Shown here: positions 325-5,635 of the stretch, in pieces | Numbering within the stretch: position 1 is the stretch's first letter | How the letters are laid out: every line of letters begins with the position of its first letter | IMG/VR virus record: IMGVR_UViG_2645727901_000019 | DNA from: a virus | Lineage: Duplodnaviria > Heunggongvirae > Uroviricota > Caudoviricetes | Direction: 5' to 3' (one strand) | Length of the DNA: 5,635 nt | Made by a program: the position numbers and the translations under genes | Notes under the pieces: model-generated | Databases searched by the model: none | What the model saw: the letters and a program-made list of their open reading frames with translations, nothing else | What the model was told of the DNA's origin: nothing

Positions 325-573
325 ATGACCGTTATCGAGTATATCCAGGAAAATCCAGATTGCAGTAGAGAAGATATATCCCTCGCACTTGGAAGAAGCG
401 CAACTTCTATCAGTAATGAATTATCACGGTTATTGTGGAATGGGTTAATAGTACGAACTGGAGAAAAAAACAAAATGATTCTGTACTGCGTAAACAATCT
501 GCCGTTTGGATACAGCAATCCCCTAAGTGTTATGTTCAACCAGTTACTTAAACAGGTAAGAAATGGCAACTGA
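325..573 (+). CDS. Small winged-helix-turn-helix DNA-binding protein (82 aa), function unknown
   Basis: ATG 325 preceded by AAGGGA (315-320). Translation MTVIEYIQENPDCSREDISLALGRSATSISNELSRLLWNGLIVRTGEKNKMILY... has the helix-turn-helix-wing pattern of MarR/ArsR-like wHTH proteins (recognition-helix candidate SISNELSRL, wing IVRTGEKNKMILY). An in-frame ATG at 283 lacks an SD. Lies in the low-GC segment. Confidence 0.6.
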   Translation: MTVIEYIQENPDCSREDISLALGRSATSISNELSRLLWNGLIVRTGEKNKMILYCVNNLPFGYSNPLSVMFNQLLKQVRNGN

Positions 574-880: not shown

Positions 881-1148
881 AATGGGACTGAACAGCGATG
901 TCACTGCCGAAGAGGTTTATGACCTGGCTGTACTGGCGCTGAATTTATCAAATATCGCAAACCTGAAGCGATACGAGCTTGATATGGATGGTTGCGACTC
1001 GTGCGGTCAGGATTGTGGCGCAGATATGACTGAAAATCCTGATGGTGATTATGTCCTGTTTGATGACGTGGTTAAGTTGTTTGAATTTGATACAACCACT
1101 CAAAAGTTAGAAATCCCGGCAAAGGAGGCTGCCAGTGAGCAAGATTGA
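834..1148 (+). CDS. Hypothetical acidic protein (104 aa)
   Basis: First ATG (834) of the ORF, with GGAG (819-822) and GAAGAG upstream; stop TGA 1146-1148. Alternative start ATG 882 lies 1 nt after the upstream stop (ccATGAaATGg). Acidic, Cys-containing segment DMDGCDSCGQDCGADMTENPDGDY. No family recognised. Confidence 0.55.
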   Translation: MTITKQRVEKIIYRHEMGLNSDVTAEEVYDLAVLALNLSNIANLKRYELDMDGCDSCGQDCGADMTENPDGDYVLFDDVVKLFEFDTTTQKLEIPAKEAASEQD

Positions 1149-1177
1149 CTATCAGGCACTGCGCGAGGCGGCGGAAC
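1119..1177 (+). repeat. Direct repeat copy A (59 bp): RBS plus first ~14 codons of an Ea22-like N-terminal module
   Basis: Base-by-base alignment with 1804-1862 gives 50/59 identical (~85%). Identity starts abruptly at GCAAAGGAGGC and decays after GCGGAAC. Confidence 0.85.
1122..1128 (+). promoter_or_regulatory. Consensus Shine-Dalgarno AAGGAGG for GTG start at 1135
   Basis: Perfect AAGGAGG with 6-nt spacing to GTG; embedded in the 3' end of the upstream CDS. Confidence 0.6.
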
Positions 1178-1320
1178 AGGCAACGCAAGATGAATGGGTA
1201 GCATATATTTTGCCGGGTCATAACGGCATTTATCCTGCGCGCACGTCTGAGGGTAGGCATTGTGCGGATACTTTATTGACTGGCCTGGCGTCTGTCAGGG
1301 GCGGGAGAGCATCAACATGA
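1135..1320 (+). CDS. Ea22-like N-terminal module, truncated (61 codons); possibly a gene fragment or pseudogene
   Basis: GTG 1135 sits 6 nt after a perfect AAGGAGG (1122-1128). N-terminus MSKIDYQALREAAEQATQDEW is paralogous to the N-terminus of the 1820-2305 product (MSEINYQALREVAERA). The ORF stops at TGA 1318-1320 after a tail that does not resemble the paralogue. Confidence 0.45.
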   Translation: MSKIDYQALREAAEQATQDEWVAYILPGHNGIYPARTSEGRHCADTLLTGLASVRGGRAST

Positions 1321-1823
1321 GCATCAGAACCTACGCAGTGAATTGCAATGACGCATGGCTAAACACCGAAGGTGATGACATCTCCGGCTCATACGTTAAG
1401 TACAAAGACCATCAGGAAGTGGTTGCCGCTCTTGAGGCCAAGTGCGCGGCGCTGGCAGCGGAGAATGCGGGAATAAAGTCTGCAATTCCAGAATCACGGG
1501 ATATTGAAGATGACAATGACAATATGGATGACGTATCTCTCGCGGAAGACTTCGGGTTCAATCATGCAATAGAACGGATGAGGAGACAGATACCTGAAAC
1601 GCCAACCACTGATGCTTTCCTGGCTGAAGTCCGGGCGCAGGGGGTGGATGCTGCTATAGAAGCTGCAAAAAATCTGGTGGCCCAAGAATATGAGTATAAG
1701 GATTTCAAAGCGGCGCAGAGTGATTGCTGTATGTACCCTGGTTCAGACCTGGTAGGGAAGGTTGAAATGACTGAGTGGTTAGTTGACTTTGCTGCCCAGC
1801 TTCGCAAAGGAGGCAACCAGTGA
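1317..1823 (+). CDS. Hypothetical protein (168 aa); possibly the displaced C-terminal part of an Ea22-like gene
   Basis: ATG 1317 overlaps the upstream TGA (ATGA); GGGAGAG SD 7 nt upstream. The segment HQEVVAALEAKCAALAAEN resembles PETVLALLDERERN in the 1820-2305 paralogue. Stop TGA 1821-1823 overlaps the next GTG start (GTGA). Confidence 0.6.
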   Translation: MSIRTYAVNCNDAWLNTEGDDISGSYVKYKDHQEVVAALEAKCAALAAENAGIKSAIPESRDIEDDNDNMDDVSLAEDFGFNHAIERMRRQIPETPTTDAFLAEVRAQGVDAAIEAAKNLVAQEYEYKDFKAAQSDCCMYPGSDLVGKVEMTEWLVDFAAQLRKGGNQ

Positions 1824-2306: not shown

Positions 2307-2822
2307 ATGGCGTTAACACACCACGAACTCTGTCAGATTGCGTACAAGTTCCTTAAGCGCAACGGGTTCAAGGTTTGCTTTCATGACCGCTTTGTTGCTG
2401 TAACCAGTACCGGAGAACAGCCAGATGCTATGGGATTCAGAAATTCAGCATCATGCCTGATAGAGGCGAAGTGTTCTCGTGCTGACTTGTTGGCAGATAG
2501 AAAAAAGCGTTTCCGTAAAAATCCCTCACTTGGCATGGGCGACTGGCGATTCTTTATTAGTGAGCCGGAAATTATTTCAGTTGAGGATTTACCTCCCGGC
2601 TGGGGATTACTTCACGTTGTTAACGGAAGAGTACGGAAAGTACATGGATGGCCCAGGGGTAATTGCTGTTGGGGTAATCCTGACGATAAGCCATTTACTG
2701 GGAATAAGCAGGTTGAATGCGATTACATGTTATCTGCATTAAGGCGCATGGAGTTGAGAGGGCACCTTAATGAAATATATGACGGTGTGATTGTTAATAA
2801 GAAAGAAGGAAACGCGGCATGA
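2307..2822 (+). CDS. Putative PD-(D/E)xK-fold nuclease (171 aa; Hjc/VRR-NUC-like N-terminal core plus Cys/Trp-rich C-terminal region)
   Basis: ATG 2307 lies 1 nt after the upstream stop, with AAGGAG (2295-2300) upstream. Residues 5-60 show helix(E7)-PD(39-40)-x12-EAK(53-55): HELCQIAYKFLKRNGF...QPDAMGF...LIEAKCSRADL. C-terminal part includes GWPRGNCCWGNPDD. An upstream in-frame TTG at 2274 lacks an SD. Confidence 0.7.
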   Translation: MALTHHELCQIAYKFLKRNGFKVCFHDRFVAVTSTGEQPDAMGFRNSASCLIEAKCSRADLLADRKKRFRKNPSLGMGDWRFFISEPEIISVEDLPPGWGLLHVVNGRVRKVHGWPRGNCCWGNPDDKPFTGNKQVECDYMLSALRRMELRGHLNEIYDGVIVNKKEGNAA

Positions 2823-3577
2823 TCACTATTACCAAAGGGCGACTGCTGACAATCAAGCAGTGGCGCGAAACATACGGACCGGGTAGCAACGTTGTACTGC
2901 CAGCAGAAGAAGCGGAAGAACTGGCACGAATTGCACTGGTATCGCTGGAAGCAGAGCCGGTGGCAAAGATTATAGCTCATTACCCATTAGGAGTTGACGT
3001 AGGCAAACAAAAGTTCGTACAGGCCATTGGAGAGCTTCCTGACTTTGGCGGATATCTATTTGCCGCCCCGCCAGCGCCGGTAGTGCCGGAAGAAGCAACT
3101 CCGGAAAACGTAGAAATGCTCTCTGGCTATGTTTCCACGTACAAATTAACCGATAGCGAGCGCGATATTGCTGCCGAAATATGGAACGCCTGCCGCACCG
3201 CCATGCTTCAGTCCGGAAACTTTCGGGAAAGCAAGAATTCGTCAACCAATAATTTTCGGGAAATCCCGGAAGCGTCAACCAGCTCTCCGGTAACTCCGGC
3301 TCTTCTGCCTGGTGGTTTCACCATTGAGGAGGCGAAGGAATTACATGAAGACCTGGTACGCAGCCACATAAGCAAGGCCTTAAGTGGCGAAAAGATGAAA
3401 AAGAAAGATCGCGATGCTGATTTGCGCTGGATTCATGGCGTTATAGTTCAGGCAGCGTGGTTTGTAAAAGCATCACTGGAGCAGAATGCACTATCGGGCA
3501 ACTCTCCGGTAACTCCGGATGGTTGGATAAGCTGTAGTGAGCGAATGCCGGACGACAGGCAGGAGGTGAATCAATGA
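2819..3577 (+). CDS. Hypothetical prophage protein (252 aa) with an internal repeat-rich linker; ends just after a PDGWISCSERMPDD motif
   Basis: ATG 2819 overlaps the upstream TGA (ATGA); GAAGGAAA SD. Contains a 33-bp tandem repeat (FRESKNSSTNN / FREIPEASTSS) and a 17-bp perfect direct repeat in frame 219 bp apart. The C-terminal motif resembles, from memory, the start of a DUF551-type prophage domain. Stop TGA 3575-3577. Confidence 0.7.
   Translation: MITITKGRLLTIKQWRETYGPGSNVVLPAEEAEELARIALVSLEAEPVAKIIAHYPLGVDVGKQKFVQAIGELPDFGGYLFAAPPAPVVPEEATPENVEMLSGYVSTYKLTDSERDIAAEIWNACRTAMLQSGNFRESKNSSTNNFREIPEASTSSPVTPALLPGGFTIEEAKELHEDLVRSHISKALSGEKMKKKDRDADLRWIHGVIVQAAWFVKASLEQNALSGNSPVTPDGWISCSERMPDDRQEVNQ
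3221..3286 (+). repeat. Imperfect 33-bp tandem repeat (2 units) inside the 2819-3577 CDS
   Basis: TTTCGGGAAA recurs at 3221 and 3254 and CGTCAACCA at 3240 and 3273, both with period 33 bp (in frame, 11 codons). Confidence 0.6.
3283..3299 (+). repeat. 17-bp perfect direct repeat, copy 1 (CTCTCCGGTAACTCCGG)
   Basis: Identical 17-mer recurs at 3502-3518, 219 bp (73 codons) downstream in the same frame of the same CDS; flanking bases differ on both sides. Confidence 0.9.
3502..3518 (+). repeat. 17-bp perfect direct repeat, copy 2 (CTCTCCGGTAACTCCGG)
   Basis: See copy 1. Encodes SPVTP in both places (SSPVTPALLPGG vs NSPVTPDGW). Confidence 0.9.
3561..3568 (+). promoter_or_regulatory. Strong Shine-Dalgarno AGGAGGTG for the 27-codon peptide gene
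   Basis: AGGAGGTG lies 5 nt upstream of ATG 3574, inside the last codons of the preceding CDS. Confidence 0.55.
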
Positions 3578-3657
3578 GCTGGCCTGATGCAATCGTAACT
3601 CTGGGGGTGGTATTCGCAGCAGCGTTTGTTGTGTTCTCGATTTGTCGATGGGGATAA
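3574..3657 (+). CDS. Small hydrophobic single-helix peptide (27 aa), not in the supplied ORF track
   Basis: ATG 3574 overlaps the upstream TGA (ATGA); AGGAGGTG (3561-3568) lies 5 nt upstream. Translation MSWPDAIVTLGVVFAAAFVVFSICRWG, stop TAA 3655-3657. Fills the gap between two coupled genes exactly. Confidence 0.45.
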   Translation: MSWPDAIVTLGVVFAAAFVVFSICRWG

Positions 3658-4060: not shown

Positions 4061-4315
4061 ATGCAGACAATCATCTATCAGATAACCCCCAGCAAATGGT
4101 GTACGGAGAGAGTCCTCATTGCATCAACAGGGCTAAAGCCTGGCACCATTGAGCGGGCAAGAAGAAAGTCATGGATGCAGGGAAAAGAATACCGCCATTA
4201 CGCTGTAGAAGGTGATCCGGGGCACTACAGTGAATGCCTGTACAACATCGAAGAAATTATGCGATGGATCGAAAACCAGAAACAACCAGGTGCCAAAAAT
4301 GCAAGTTCCGGTTAA
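4061..4315 (+). CDS. Excisionase-like protein (84 aa; recombination directionality factor candidate)
   Basis: Small basic protein immediately upstream of the integrase on the same strand. Translation ITPSKWCTERVLIASTGLKPGTIERARRKSWMQGKEYRHYAVEG...YNIEEIMRWIE matches my recollection of enterobacterial prophage excisionase-like proteins (DUF1233-type). GAGG 5 nt upstream of ATG 4061. Confidence 0.65.
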   Translation: MQTIIYQITPSKWCTERVLIASTGLKPGTIERARRKSWMQGKEYRHYAVEGDPGHYSECLYNIEEIMRWIENQKQPGAKNASSG

Positions 4316-4348: not shown

Positions 4349-5635
4349 ATGAGTAACGCATCATACCCGACAGGCGTTGAAAACCATGGAGGATCACTCC
4401 GTATATGGTTTCACTATAATGGCAAACGTGTCAGAGAAAACCTCGGTGTTCCTGACACAGCCAAAAACCGGAAGATCGCTGGTGAACTTCGCACTTCCGT
4501 TTGTTTTGCAATCAGAATGGGGAGTTTCGACTACGCCGCGCAGTTCCCTAATTCCCCTAACCTGAAACACTTTGGTCTGGGAAAAAGAGAGATAACCGTT
4601 AAGGCACTTTCGGAAAAATGGTTGGACCTTAAGAAAATTGAGATTTGTGCGAATGCACTTAATCGTTACCAGTCAGTAATTAAAAACATGTTGCCTATGT
4701 TGGGTGAGAAAAAACTGGTTTCATCCATAACAAAAGAGGATTTACTTTTCGCAAGGAGAGATTTGTTGACCGGTTACCAAAAGCTTTCTAATGGAAAGAT
4801 TTCTTCCATAAAAGGGCGCTCAGTGGTCACAGTAAACTACTATATGACAACCATAGCTGGAATGTTTCAATTTGCAACAGATAATGGTTATACCTCAGGA
4901 AACCCATTTAACGGTCTGGCACCCTTAAAAAAGTCCAAGGTAAAACCAGATCCTCTCACCCGTGACGAATTTATTCGTTTTATTGAAGCTTGCCGTCATC
5001 AACAAACAAAAAACCTGTGGATTCTCGCTGTATACACGGGTATTCGTCACGGGGAGCTGGTATCGCTGGCATGGGAAGATATAGATCTTAAAGCAAGGAC
5101 TATAACCATCCGTAGGAATTATACAAAACTTGGCGAATTCACTCCACCAAAAACCGATGCTGGCACCGGAAGGACAATTCATCTGGTTCAACCAGCTATT
5201 GATGCTCTTAAAAGTCAGGCGGAAATGACCATGCTTGGAAAGCAACATTCTGTAGAGGTAAAGCAGAGGGAATATGGGAGAAGTACTGTGCATAAATGCA
5301 CTTTTGTTTTTAGTCCTCAGGTAATAAAACAGCGGCAGTTTTCCGGACCGCACTATAAGGTTGACTCCATCAGGGAGTCATGGACAAGTATCTTAAAACG
5401 CGCAGGTCTGAGACACAGAAAATCGTACCAATCCAGGCATACTTATGCATGCTGGTCACTTGCCGCTGGAGCTAATCCTAGTTTTATCGCAAGCCAGATG
5501 GGCCACACAAACGCACAAATGGTATTCAATGTTTACGGAGCATGGATGAAAGACAACAATCACGAACAGATAGAACTCCTTAACAAAAGACTATCTGAAA
5601 GTGTCCCATGTATGCCCCATAAGAAAGCTGGGTAA
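4349..5635 (+). CDS. int: Tyrosine site-specific recombinase / phage integrase (428 aa)
   Basis: GGGAGG SD 5 nt upstream of ATG 4349. Catalytic-domain signatures: box I Arg in TGIRHGELVSLAWEDIDL, Lys in PPKTDAGTGRTIHL, box II YQSRHTYACWSL, then GHTNAQMVFNVYGAW with the tyrosine nucleophile. N-terminal ~70 aa resemble an arm-binding domain. Stop TAA is the last codon of the window. Confidence 0.95.
   Translation: MSNASYPTGVENHGGSLRIWFHYNGKRVRENLGVPDTAKNRKIAGELRTSVCFAIRMGSFDYAAQFPNSPNLKHFGLGKREITVKALSEKWLDLKKIEICANALNRYQSVIKNMLPMLGEKKLVSSITKEDLLFARRDLLTGYQKLSNGKISSIKGRSVVTVNYYMTTIAGMFQFATDNGYTSGNPFNGLAPLKKSKVKPDPLTRDEFIRFIEACRHQQTKNLWILAVYTGIRHGELVSLAWEDIDLKARTITIRRNYTKLGEFTPPKTDAGTGRTIHLVQPAIDALKSQAEMTMLGKQHSVEVKQREYGRSTVHKCTFVFSPQVIKQRQFSGPHYKVDSIRESWTSILKRAGLRHRKSYQSRHTYACWSLAAGANPSFIASQMGHTNAQMVFNVYGAWMKDNNHEQIELLNKRLSESVPCMPHKKAG

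Follow-up and report, generated by a model that had tools for sequence, protein, structure and literature searches.

The window, which is the whole 5635 nt stretch of DNA that was analysed, belongs to a prophage of E. coli O55:H7 RM12579. An excisionase-like gene (PF06806; 4061–4315) and an integrase gene (4349–5635) follow on the same strand as the region of interest, 1135–1823, which is the arrangement found in the exo-xis part of lambdoid prophages. This region carries two overlapping ORFs (Table 1). Both had been described in an earlier note on this DNA, and the sequence bears them out: one of 61 codons, from GTG 1135 to TGA 1318-1320, and one of 168 codons with an ATG at 1317 and its own Shine-Dalgarno (SD) sequence, GGGAGAG. 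Further ATGA/GTGA overlaps occur in the operon at 1820, 2819 and 3574, the first of these (GTGA) linking the 168-codon ORF to a second Ea22-like gene, the intact paralogue of the earlier note. Several other genes around the region are flagged as damaged.

Table 1. Coordinates of the features at the locus (positions in the window).
Feature	Coordinates	Strand	Basis or remark
Winged-helix-like gene	325..573	+	Same operon; weak MarR/HTH Pfam matches; context only
61-codon ORF, WP_001300192.1	1135..1320	+	ORF list; PGAP annotation in RM12579
Codons 1-43, canonical Ead/Ea22 N-terminal domain in native frame	1135..1263	+	Alignment to canonical genes
TGTG, tandem TG duplication (+2 frameshift, gene-splitting lesion)	1261..1264	+	Comparison with the 228-aa allele
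Seven Ea22 N-domain codons out of frame	1264..1284	+	ADTLLTG instead of GYFIDWPG; translations of split and fused alleles
GCCTGGC, 7-bp microhomology at the recombination joint	1283..1289	+	Four-way nucleotide alignment
Relic 3' end of a small winged-helix gene (LASVRGGRAST, then stop)	1285..1320	+	Native frame in the split allele; TGA overlaps ATG 1317
SD sequence GGGAGAG of the 1317 gene	1303..1309	+	GGAG core 1304-1307; 9-nt spacer to ATG
168-codon gene, WP_000027851.1	1317..1823	+	ATG 1317 to TGA 1821-1823; PF13935
Second Ea22-like gene, 161 aa	1820..2305	+	PF13935 profile positions 1-139, E 4e-31, 108.8 bits

The start of the 1135 ORF is Ea22-like, as the earlier note had proposed, with an N-terminus (MSKIDYQALREAAE) that resembles that of the paralogue (MSEINYQALREVAE; BLASTP E 2e-5). 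The 61-aa product matches positions 1–45 of the PF13935 profile (E 3.6e-14, 54.0 bits) and the 168-aa product matches positions 48–138 (E 7.2e-11, 43.3 bits). These scores, like those of the paralogue and of the fused form described below, lie above the Pfam gathering threshold of 27 bits, and by profile comparison the assignment of the two ORFs to this family is far beyond chance. The 1317–1823 product is thus not a member of an unrelated family, a possibility that the earlier note had allowed for.

All three frames had been thought to be closed between 1199 and 1256, and several indels were invoked to explain this. Stop codons are indeed present at 1199 (position modulo 3 of 2) and at 1221, 1248 and 1254 (modulo 0), but no stop interrupts the frame of the 61-codon ORF itself (modulo 1) between 1108 and 1318, leaving it open from 1111 to 1317. 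That of the 1317 ORF has an open stretch from 1257 to 1820, so that the two frames overlap by 61 nt (1257–1317) and a single -1/+2 shift joins the 61- and 168-codon ORFs. Near-identical E. coli prophages carry one 228-aa gene here (WP_033877702.1), relative to which the window has a 2-bp insertion. Over 1120–1340 the only difference from the 228-aa allele is TG to TGTG at 1261–1264, and removal of one TG yields a 228-codon ORF identical to the annotated RefSeq protein. Canonical Ea22-like genes (at loci L135 and L104) have a single TG, and TGTG is therefore the derived state. The fused 228-aa form matches PF13935 positions 1–138 (102.2 bits), a match that the split form divides into 1–45 and 48–138. 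The idea of a broken Ea22-like gene is upheld in so far as the closest relatives have a single frame and the family profile is split, but one 2-bp duplication takes the place of the plural indels. Compared with closely related full-length homologues the reading frame is interrupted, as in a pseudogene; downstream coding capacity, on the other hand, appears to be retained, since the native SD and ATG are kept and no stop interrupts the 1317 ORF before its usual end.

The 228-aa form, although it looks intact, has a composite origin. The nucleotides of 1135–1263 are near-identical to the canonical genes at L135 and L104, and the protein they encode matches the canonical proteins P0138, P0179, P0183 and P0197-P0199. 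Upstream of the heptanucleotide GCCTGGC the window follows the canonical gene, with the coding frame of that gene running through to W-P-G. At this point the identity to the canonical gene drops from at least 0.82 to 0.30, while the identity to a set of stand-alone loci climbs to about 1.0. At those loci a winged-helix gene ending in LASVRGGRASA overlaps, by ATGA, a gene that starts MSIRTYAVNC; for example, at L064 and L082-L086 an ORF of 108–160 aa ends in ...NLFNQCLASVRGGRA(SA/EV) on the same ATGA. The product of the winged-helix-like gene at 325–573 is homologous to the family of ORFs that own this tail (BLASTP E 3e-10), and the homology includes the C-terminal motif NPL..FNQ.L..VR.G. Canonical proteins run on as ...WPG-IDGQRNAGANARYIAA...ALLDE and are joined to many different bodies. 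In the window, homology to the canonical N-terminal domain stops at WPG and its second half is replaced, so that the NA..FIAA..ALLDE part, which in a complete domain leads into the coiled coil, is absent from 1135–1823, in addition to the frameshift at codon 43/44. The ALLDE motif lies in this missing half, and the likeness once proposed between EVVAALEAKCAALAAEN and VLALLDERERN of the paralogue was not confirmed; BLASTP instead pairs AALAAENAGIKSAI with VLFMENARLKSGI of the paralogue. Judged from these alignments, the 228-aa form is itself a chimera, a recombinant fusion, and not a pristine ancestral state.

The 168-codon ORF was previously read as the 3' part of the broken gene, re-initiated as a separate gene. 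This does not hold, as ATG 1317 and its SD are the native start of a widespread stand-alone family. Both elements are identical to those at L064 and L082-L086, and the homologous methionine is the start in at least 30 diverged clusters (50% level), among which the start context varies (MKIN-, MSEVK-, MREVK- and MSI[RKIN]-). More distant stand-alone members sit after unrelated genes or spacers. A further scan of IMG/VR, with an MSEVKTYAVNC-type protein as seed, retrieved mostly loci that share the C-terminal part, and the few N-terminal matches were distant stand-alone relatives. At 168 aa the product is within the size range of the family (135–170 aa), and TYAVNCNDAWLNT, TPATDAFLAEVRAQGV and AAQLRKGGNQ are all present. 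On this sequence evidence, 1317–1823 is not a re-initiated fragment but a complete gene belonging to the stand-alone "TYAVNC-type" branch of the Ead/Ea22 family.

In an AlphaFold2 (AF2) model of the 168-aa product, residues 1–27 are of low confidence. They are followed by a helix (29–56), a linker also modelled with low confidence, and a C-terminal domain made of helices (79–163, pLDDT 90–97). The predicted structure therefore has the long central helix and separate C-terminal domain of Ea22 proteins. A Foldseek search of the PDB with this model gave no match with E <1, and a PDB sequence search with the fused protein found nothing meaningful (best E 0.89). By analogy with studied relatives, the 168-aa product may have an Ea22-type function (PMC7093339, PMC10834534). 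The AF2 model of a canonical N-terminal domain (P0138) has a mean pLDDT of 50, too poor to judge whether residues 1–51 fold alone, and its secondary structure (helix, three strands, helix) agrees with the published prediction (PMC7093339).

The 61-aa product consists of 43 native residues of the Ea22 domain, seven out-of-frame residues and 11 residues from the last codons of the relic gene, read in their native frame. The out-of-frame ADTLLTG looks like the native tail NNLFNQC found upstream of the crossover, a possible homeology that could have aided recombination, albeit over a very short stretch. An entire protein family, phrog_14804 (60 positions), matches the 61-aa ORF over its full length, and full-length homologues had been named beforehand as a sign of a bona fide short protein. 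Such homologues do exist, but phrog_14804 matches the TGTG fragment and the fragment of another lesion (ΔT, below) equally well, and these two have nothing in common beyond their first 25 residues and the relic tail. From its sequence matches, this family is one built from such frameshift fragments.

The occurrence of the split was surveyed in 5426 complete genomes, of which about 230 are carriers, and in an IMG/VR sample (loci L009-L088). The TGTG allele is present in 34 of the 5426, with chromosomal as well as P1-like plasmid copies. Proteins identical to the 61-aa and 168-aa products are each encoded on at least about 1000 contigs. A single TG at the 1261–1264 site occurs in 196 of the roughly 230 carriers, and a fusion protein of 226–228 aa is the form in most of them. 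Four independent lesions produce the same split: +TG at 1261–1264, ΔT in TTTT at 1208–1211, ΔG in GGG at 1215–1217 and ΔG in GG at 1225–1226. In that order, the lesions were seen in 34, 7, 20 and 0 of the complete genomes and, in the IMG/VR sample, at 20, 4, 6 and 1 loci. Together, split alleles make up about a quarter (about 27%) of the complete-genome carriers, and the split is commonplace among E. coli prophages, an ordinary polymorphism that calls for no new mechanism. Only 24–43 N-terminal residues are common to the products of the split lesions, and to judge from the four independent lesions the N-terminal remnant is dispensable.

In the IMG/VR sample, the internal ATG is kept in 31 of 31 split loci. 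The C-terminal ORF is open to the usual family terminus in all 30 that are complete on their contig (one further runs off its contig), and these ORFs span at least eight different C-terminal bodies. Among the 38 unlesioned, in-frame loci of the same sample the internal ATG is present in 21 and absent in 17, and one fused allele is truncated. Complete genomes contain 41 records of fused alleles without the internal ATG. Since these 41 records and 17 of the 38 loci have lost the internal start, the fusion protein must work in such lineages, and the N-terminal remnant is not necessarily harmful or inert.

Taken as a whole, the locus is probably best explained as a mosaic, in which a fusion at a microhomology was later split by the TG duplication, leaving a functional downstream gene and a 61-aa by-product. 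Region 1135–1823 is a three-part mosaic, situated where a lambdoid prophage has its early-left (exo-xis) genes. The alignments show that an older illegitimate recombination at GCCTGGC joined two parents. The left parent supplied codons 1–51 of a canonical Ead/Ea22 N-terminal domain, ending at W-P-G, and the right parent the last 11 codons of the winged-helix gene, the SD, the ATGA overlap and the complete 168-aa gene. By an accident of phase, the Ea22 frame continued through the old gene boundary (VCQGRESIN) into the ATG, creating the fusion protein. In the lineage of the window, the change of TG to TGTG at codons 43–44 shifts the remnant by +2. This is the original frame of the boundary segment, and translation therefore ends at the relic TGA (1318–1320), which overlaps ATG 1317. 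Translation of the downstream gene presumably continues from its native SD and ATG, and ribosomes terminating on the ATGA overlap probably help initiation at 1317, as at the other ATGA/GTGA junctions of the operon. The functional unit would be the 168-aa product, whose long helix, acidic linker and helical C-terminal domain follow the general layout of Ea22-type lysis-lysogeny modulators, while the 61-aa peptide would be a functionless by-product. On such a history one would expect translation to start at ATG 1317, peptides of the 168-aa protein such as MSIRTYAVNCNDAWLNTEGDDISGSYVK to be made, and no peptide to span ...GRHCGYFIDWPGVCQGR....

A different view of the same events, which we regard as unlikely but as the strongest of the alternatives, is that the fission was selected. 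The fusion would be mildly deleterious, and selection would favour frameshifts by which the relic stop and ATGA come into use and the downstream gene is freed, making the split adaptive rather than neutral. The frequency of split alleles among complete-genome carriers is in keeping with this, as are the four lesions, each of which belongs to the -1/+2 class and brings translation to an end on the ATGA, and the retention of the internal ATG in every split locus when nearly half of the fused loci (17/38) lack it. However, with only four independent events the probability of a same-class outcome is about 0.06–0.12 even when equal priors are assumed, and the indels expected to be commonest are 1-nt deletions in short runs. 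The frame-class bias was set aside as evidence for selection, four events being too few. The retention of the ATG could come from purifying selection alone, which would remove split alleles without it because the downstream gene is lost; the locus counts are not phylogenetically independent; and the ATG-less fused alleles show that the fusion protein is tolerated. The broader notion of a natural fusion-fission cycle at a module boundary, with an accidental fusion repeatedly undone by selection through at least four independent frameshifts, is similarly doubtful. If it were true, the boundary segment (gene tail, SD and ATGA) would serve as a portable junction, so that the downstream gene stays translatable no matter what recombines ahead of it.

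Somewhat less probable again is a plain pseudogene, in which neither piece functions and the ORFs persist only because little time has passed since the lesion and decay of prophage DNA is slow. PGAP labels the sister ΔT alleles "frameshifted" (the TGTG form is annotated as two ordinary proteins), the damage flagged in several neighbouring genes fits this reading, and the downstream ORF of AR_0372, a ΔT carrier, contains a further frameshift, consistent with some decay. No isolated phage record has the split junction, as against five with the unbroken one, but these numbers are too small to interpret. As in other prophage pseudogenes that PGAP calls frameshifted, an accessory gene has been hit by an indel in a short tandem repeat or homopolymer. 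Unlike them, the downstream part is a complete gene with the native signals of a normally stand-alone family, and the lesion undoes a fusion and destroys no gene. Decay is also at odds with the C-terminal ORFs of the 31 split loci, all of which are open where the contig is complete and across at least eight recombined bodies, much as in the fused alleles. Moreover, split forms have spread over E. coli chromosomal prophages and P1-like plasmids, and a variant of the 61-aa protein has also been named from Salmonella.

That the 61-aa ORF is a functional small protein in its own right seems improbable. It is annotated in RefSeq, is found on at least about 1000 contigs and corresponds to a PHROG family of its own, but it holds only positions 1–45 of a 139-position family profile. 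So little peptide is shared between the TGTG and ΔT fragments that what is conserved is DNA and not a peptide.

Recoding is a poorer explanation still. Under this scenario, programmed -1 ribosomal frameshifting or transcriptional slippage within 1257–1317 would restore a protein of about 228 aa. Programmed -1 frameshifts are known from phage genes of the lambda G/GT and dnaX type, which resemble the window in having two overlapping ORFs in a -1 relation; the overlap here is 61 nt, and -1 is the usual direction of programmed shifts. In contrast to those systems, a conserved shift site is lacking. A scan of 1135–1320 found no X XXY YYZ slippery heptamer in any frame and no homopolymer of the length (about 8 nt or more) expected for transcriptional slippage, none being longer than 4 nt (TTTT at 1208–1211 and GGGG at 1298–1301). 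Most alleles are in frame and require no shift, so a need to shift is not conserved among homologues, and the frame is broken at four different positions across lineages, a pattern of mutation. The programmed shift considered in the earlier note is thus without support. A sequencing or assembly error in the record, also considered there, is excluded for practical purposes by the same TGTG junction in 34 independently assembled complete genomes and 20 IMG/VR contigs, by the many contigs that carry the two proteins, and by the dinucleotide nature of the duplication, which is atypical of homopolymer errors.

The main value of the mosaic interpretation is for annotation and for the reading of phage mosaicism. 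Three consecutive RefSeq "ead/Ea22-like family proteins" correspond to a half-domain remnant, a complete stand-alone-type gene and a canonical-type gene. The 228-aa protein looks intact yet is chimeric, and is unsuitable as a reference architecture, and at least one PHROG family (phrog_14804) consists of frameshift fragments. The natural allelic series (fused, fused without internal ATG, split and stand-alone) may be useful for probing the importance of the canonical N-terminal domain. Literature searches found no experimental study of any member of the TYAVNC-type branch, and no paper on a split or fused Ea22-like gene.

Among known systems, the closest are Ea22 of lambda and the Ea22 variants V1–V3 of Stx phages, which belong to PF13935/IPR025153 (Ead_Ea22) (PMC7093339, PMC10834534). 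Pro-lysogenic activity and a tetrameric state have been described for the lambda and Stx-phage proteins only (PMC7093339, PMC10834534). [quoted passage not shown] It differs in that the first copy has only the half of the N-terminal domain up to WPG, which was joined to another gene and later separated from it by a frameshift. Furthermore, the C-terminal domain of lambda Ea22 is a mixed alpha-beta dimer (PMC10834534), whereas that of the 168-aa product is predicted to be all-helical.

Stand-alone TYAVNC-type proteins (such as P0168, P0171, P0181 and P0186-P0191, part of phrog_368, phrog_492 and phrog_614) share with 1317–1823 the homologous methionine, the SD, the TYAVNCNDAWLNTEGDDISGSYVKY N-terminal motif, the ...AALAAENAG.K helix, TPATDAFLAEVRAQGV and the ...AAQLRKGGNQ end. 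Unlike them, the gene in the window is preceded by a 61-codon Ea22 remnant and not by a winged-helix gene. Lambdoid phages exchange modules at gene boundaries by illegitimate or short-homology recombination. The joint described here is like other lambdoid mosaic joints in its sharp change of parentage and in a 7-bp microhomology adjoining a conserved tail/SD/ATGA boundary segment. It departs from the usual ones in lying within a coding domain and not exactly at the boundary, and the outcome was a fusion protein that was later split again.

A prophage of E. coli O55:H7 str. RM12579 matches the window with 100% identity, and in RefSeq 1135-1320, 1317-1823 and 1820-2305 are three proteins, each annotated "ead/Ea22-like family". 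All window genes lie on the + strand and head towards an excisionase-like gene followed by a tyrosine integrase, an order that identifies the window as accessory DNA from the exo-xis (early-left) region of a lambdoid prophage. Neighbouring genes are packed closely, with 4-nt ATGA/GTGA stop/start overlaps at 1317, 1820, 2819 and 3574.

Features of the window and frameshift lesions in the Ea22 remnant
Feature	Position	Strand	Match or content	Complete genomes with lesion
61-codon ORF, first part	codons 1-43		Ea22 N-domain, native frame	
61-codon ORF, middle part	codons 44-50		Ea22 sequence, out of frame (ADTLLTG)	
61-codon ORF, tail	codons 51-61		relic 3' end of displaced winged-helix gene, original frame (LASVRGGRAST, stop)	
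Lesion ΔT in TTTT	1208-1211			7
Lesion ΔG in GGG	1215-1217			20
Lesion ΔG in GG	1225-1226			0
Lesion +TG	1261-1264			34
Uninterrupted 171-codon ORF	2307-2822	+	phrog_9263, phrog_631	
252-aa 'phage protein'	2819-3577	+	DUF551	
Unannotated 27-codon hydrophobic ORF (MSWPDAIVTLGVVFAAAFVVFSICRWG)	3574-3657	+	ATG overlaps the 2819-3577 stop as ATGA	
Excisionase-like gene	4061-4315	+	PF06806	
Tyrosine integrase	4349-5635	+		

The first Ea22-like copy (1135-1823) is read as two ORFs, the limits of which had been placed correctly in an earlier note: one of 61 codons, from GTG 1135 to TGA 1318-1320, and one of 168 codons, from ATG 1317 to a stop at 1821-1823, with GGGAGAG at 1303-1309. All three frames were said to be closed between them, but the stops listed, while present, occur only in the two frames other than that of the 61-codon ORF, which is stop-free over 1111-1317. 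The frame of the 168-codon ORF is open from 1257, so the two overlap over 1257-1317 and a single -1/+2 shift suffices to join them. A proposed likeness of EVVAALEAKCAALAAEN to VLALLDERERN of the paralogue (1820-2305) is not given by BLASTP alignment, which pairs AALAAENAGIKSAI with VLFMENARLKSGI.

In near-identical prophages (99.7% identity; e.g. strain BEC1-S17-ESBL-09) the same interval holds a single 687-nt CDS, the product of which is WP_033877702.1 (228 aa). Over 1120-1340 the sole difference between the window and this fused allele is CATTGTGCGG vs CATTGCGG (fused), a tandem TG duplication, and removing one TG in silico restores exactly the 228-aa protein. The gene is broken, as had been proposed, but by one 2-bp insertion and not by several indels. 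The fused protein aligns without interruption to positions 1-138 of the Pfam Ead_Ea22 profile (PF13935), of which the 61-aa ORF covers 1-45 and the 168-aa ORF 48-138; one family profile is therefore cut by one 2-bp insertion. Both canonical genes examined, which have a complete Ea22 N-domain (L135 and L104), carry TG only once, which makes TGTG the derived state. Probes that could seed a match at the exact junction and nowhere else found TGTG in 34 of 5426 complete genomes of E. coli, at 20 places on chromosomes and 15 on plasmids, and single TG in 196. Sequencing error, considered earlier, is excluded by these 34 genomes and by the occurrence of the exact 61-aa and 168-aa proteins each on at least ~1000 contigs. 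Salmonella is named as the source of a 61-aa variant, and many fused variants exist (226-237 aa). The split junction is carried by chromosomal prophages and P1-like plasmids, preceded by differing upstream genes and followed by C-terminal bodies of 168, 147, 137 and 166 aa.

Judged by the parentage of its sequence, the "intact" 228-aa protein is itself a chimera. Canonical Ea22-like proteins sharing its first 51 residues run on as ...WPG-IDGQRNAGANARYIAA..PKVALALLDE and then into a coiled coil, with many different bodies. In a nucleotide alignment of the window, the fused allele, the two canonical genes and three stand-alone loci (TYAVNC-type genes without the Ea22 N-domain), the window equals the canonical genes up to GACTGGCCTGGC and the stand-alone loci from GCCTGGC on, and this sharp switch places the crossover within the 7-bp microhomology GCCTGGC (1283-1289). 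The codons in this region are TGG CCT GGC (W P G) in the Ea22 parent and TGC CTG GCT (C L A) in the other. After the crossover, the Ea22 frame reads through the old gene boundary (VCQGRESIN) into the stand-alone ATG, producing the fusion. The first Ea22-like copy lacks a complete canonical N-domain, and all pieces are PF13935 members by score.

The 168-codon ORF had been taken for a re-initiated 3' fragment but, to judge from its relatives, is a complete gene of the stand-alone family. An exhaustive search without profiles, with the 228-aa sequence as query, gave >30 diverged clusters (45-75% identity) whose first residue corresponds precisely to query residue 61 or 62, where ATG 1317 encodes Met. 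Their N-termini vary (MKINTYAVNC..., MSEVKTYAVNC..., MREVKTYAVNC..., MSI[RKIN]TYAVNC...), which shows the starts to be genuine and not the result of truncating a single sequence. At the IMG/VR loci L064 and L082-L086, the TYAVNC-type gene is preceded by an unrelated ORF of 108-160 aa, a small winged-helix-like protein ending in ...NPLNNLFNQCLASVRGGRA(SA/EV), the TGA of which overlaps the TYAVNC-type ATG, with GGGGCGGGAGAGCA ahead, as in the window. This upstream ORF is homologous to window 325-573 (E 3e-10, C-terminal motif included), also a small gene of winged-helix-like type, with weak matches to MarR/HTH in Pfam. Remoter stand-alone relatives (MSEVKRYDIS..., MKEVKIYTI...) sit behind other genes or spacers and are without the Ea22 N-domain. 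In every testable respect the 168-aa gene belongs to the stand-alone TYAVNC-type branch. The module is also joined to other upstream sequences, e.g. ...ENTSLKQSEKECGYFIDWPGVCHRRESIRTYAVNC... and ...LRRASISIRTYAVNC... (locus L067, 1414-; proteins P0182, P0185 and P0268), and with such varied partners its boundary seems to be a recurrent recombination site.

The tail of the 61-codon ORF (1285-1320), described earlier as unlike the paralogue, is a relic gene end in its original frame and therefore not random sequence; its stop is the displaced gene's own, within the ATGA overlap. The 60-position phrog_14804 matches both the TGTG fragment (61 aa, E 1e-35) and the ΔT fragment (60 aa, E 5e-41) end to end, including the out-of-frame tail, and appears to be a PHROGs family made from frameshift fragments. 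The lesions leave only 24-43 residues in common and hence no conserved peptide; the 61-aa product is probably a by-product.

An alignment of 84 loci revealed four independent frameshifts in the Ea22 remnant, all of the -1/+2 class and with one shared terminal TGA, together accounting for ~27% of the ~230 carriers among complete genomes. Within the IMG/VR sample (L009-L088), the internal ATG is kept in 31/31 split loci, and every contig-complete C-terminal ORF in these reads uninterrupted to the usual end (...QLRKGGNQ-type), with at least 8 different bodies. Another 38 loci are lesion-free and in frame; in 17 an in-frame 6-nt deletion has removed the internal "NM" codons, including the internal ATG, and so locks the gene in the fused form (...RESISIRTY...). 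Fused alleles with this deletion include L036, L040, L045-L048, L050, L051, L057, L073, L075-L078, L081 and L087. Complete E. coli genomes hold 41 records of this ATG-less form. The only clear further decay noticed was in E. coli AR_0372, a ΔT carrier (L004 1815-2156), where a second frameshift truncates the downstream ORF to 113 aa.

Selection for fission of the fused gene would fit the restriction of all lesions to one frame class and to ATG-bearing alleles, but this is only suggestive, because the events number four, 1-nt deletions in short runs are the expected mutational bias, and the ATG-less alleles show that fusion is tolerated. Decay to a dead pseudogene is less likely, given the retained native signals and open ORFs. 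Programmed frameshifting, for which no supporting motif was found, is at odds with the four different break points and with most alleles being in frame. Under fusion followed by fission, with the mosaic structure and the lesion's polarity established, the native SD, ATG and ATGA present and the downstream ORF retained, ribosomes on the early-left transcript would read the 61-codon remnant and stop at the ATGA. Translation of the 168-aa protein would then use that gene's own SD and ATG, aided by termination-reinitiation at 1317, as at the other overlaps of the window operon.

Among the neighbouring genes, the 2307-2822 ORF matches phrog_9263 (residues 3-171; profile positions 62-230 of 230) and has no Pfam match; the RefSeq/PGAP annotation covers no more of it than 2307-2485, labelled a 'frameshifted' hypothetical pseudogene, and leaves 2486-2818 blank. 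A candidate PD-(D/E)XK-like motif (PDAMGF...CLIEAKCS) was spotted in it by eye. The 2819-3577 protein ends in a partial match to DUF551 (residues 235-250; no more than positions 1-16 of 68 in the profile), and the stretch SGNSPVTPDGWISCSERMP equals the linker and DUF551 start of longer Ea22-type proteins (e.g. P0198), so that it resembles the product of a DUF551-bearing gene whose C-terminal domain has been truncated. A near-repeat lies within the same gene (SSPVTPALLPGG and NSPVTPDGW). The 3574-3657 product may be a small membrane peptide. The paralogue ends in ...GIRIKGE, which fits the K/RGE C-terminal motif common in Ea22 proteins (PMC7093339).

In the predicted model of the 168-aa protein, the first 27 residues are uncertain; a long helix follows at 29-56, then an acidic linker and, at 79-163, a helical C-terminal domain predicted with confidence. 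PDB searches with this model and with the sequence of the fused protein gave no structural relatives. The predicted layout resembles that described for Ea22 proteins in general, which are pro-lysogeny in lambda and Stx phages and have variable C-terminal domains (PMC7093339, PMC10834534). By analogy, the function of the 168-aa protein would be Ea22-like. Prophage genes split by frameshifts are familiar, as are microhomology joints, and this locus is not a new kind of system. Its fusion-then-fission history and relic tail are apparently undescribed in the searched literature; mosaicism and the presence of several ea22 variants per genome have already been described (PMC10834534).
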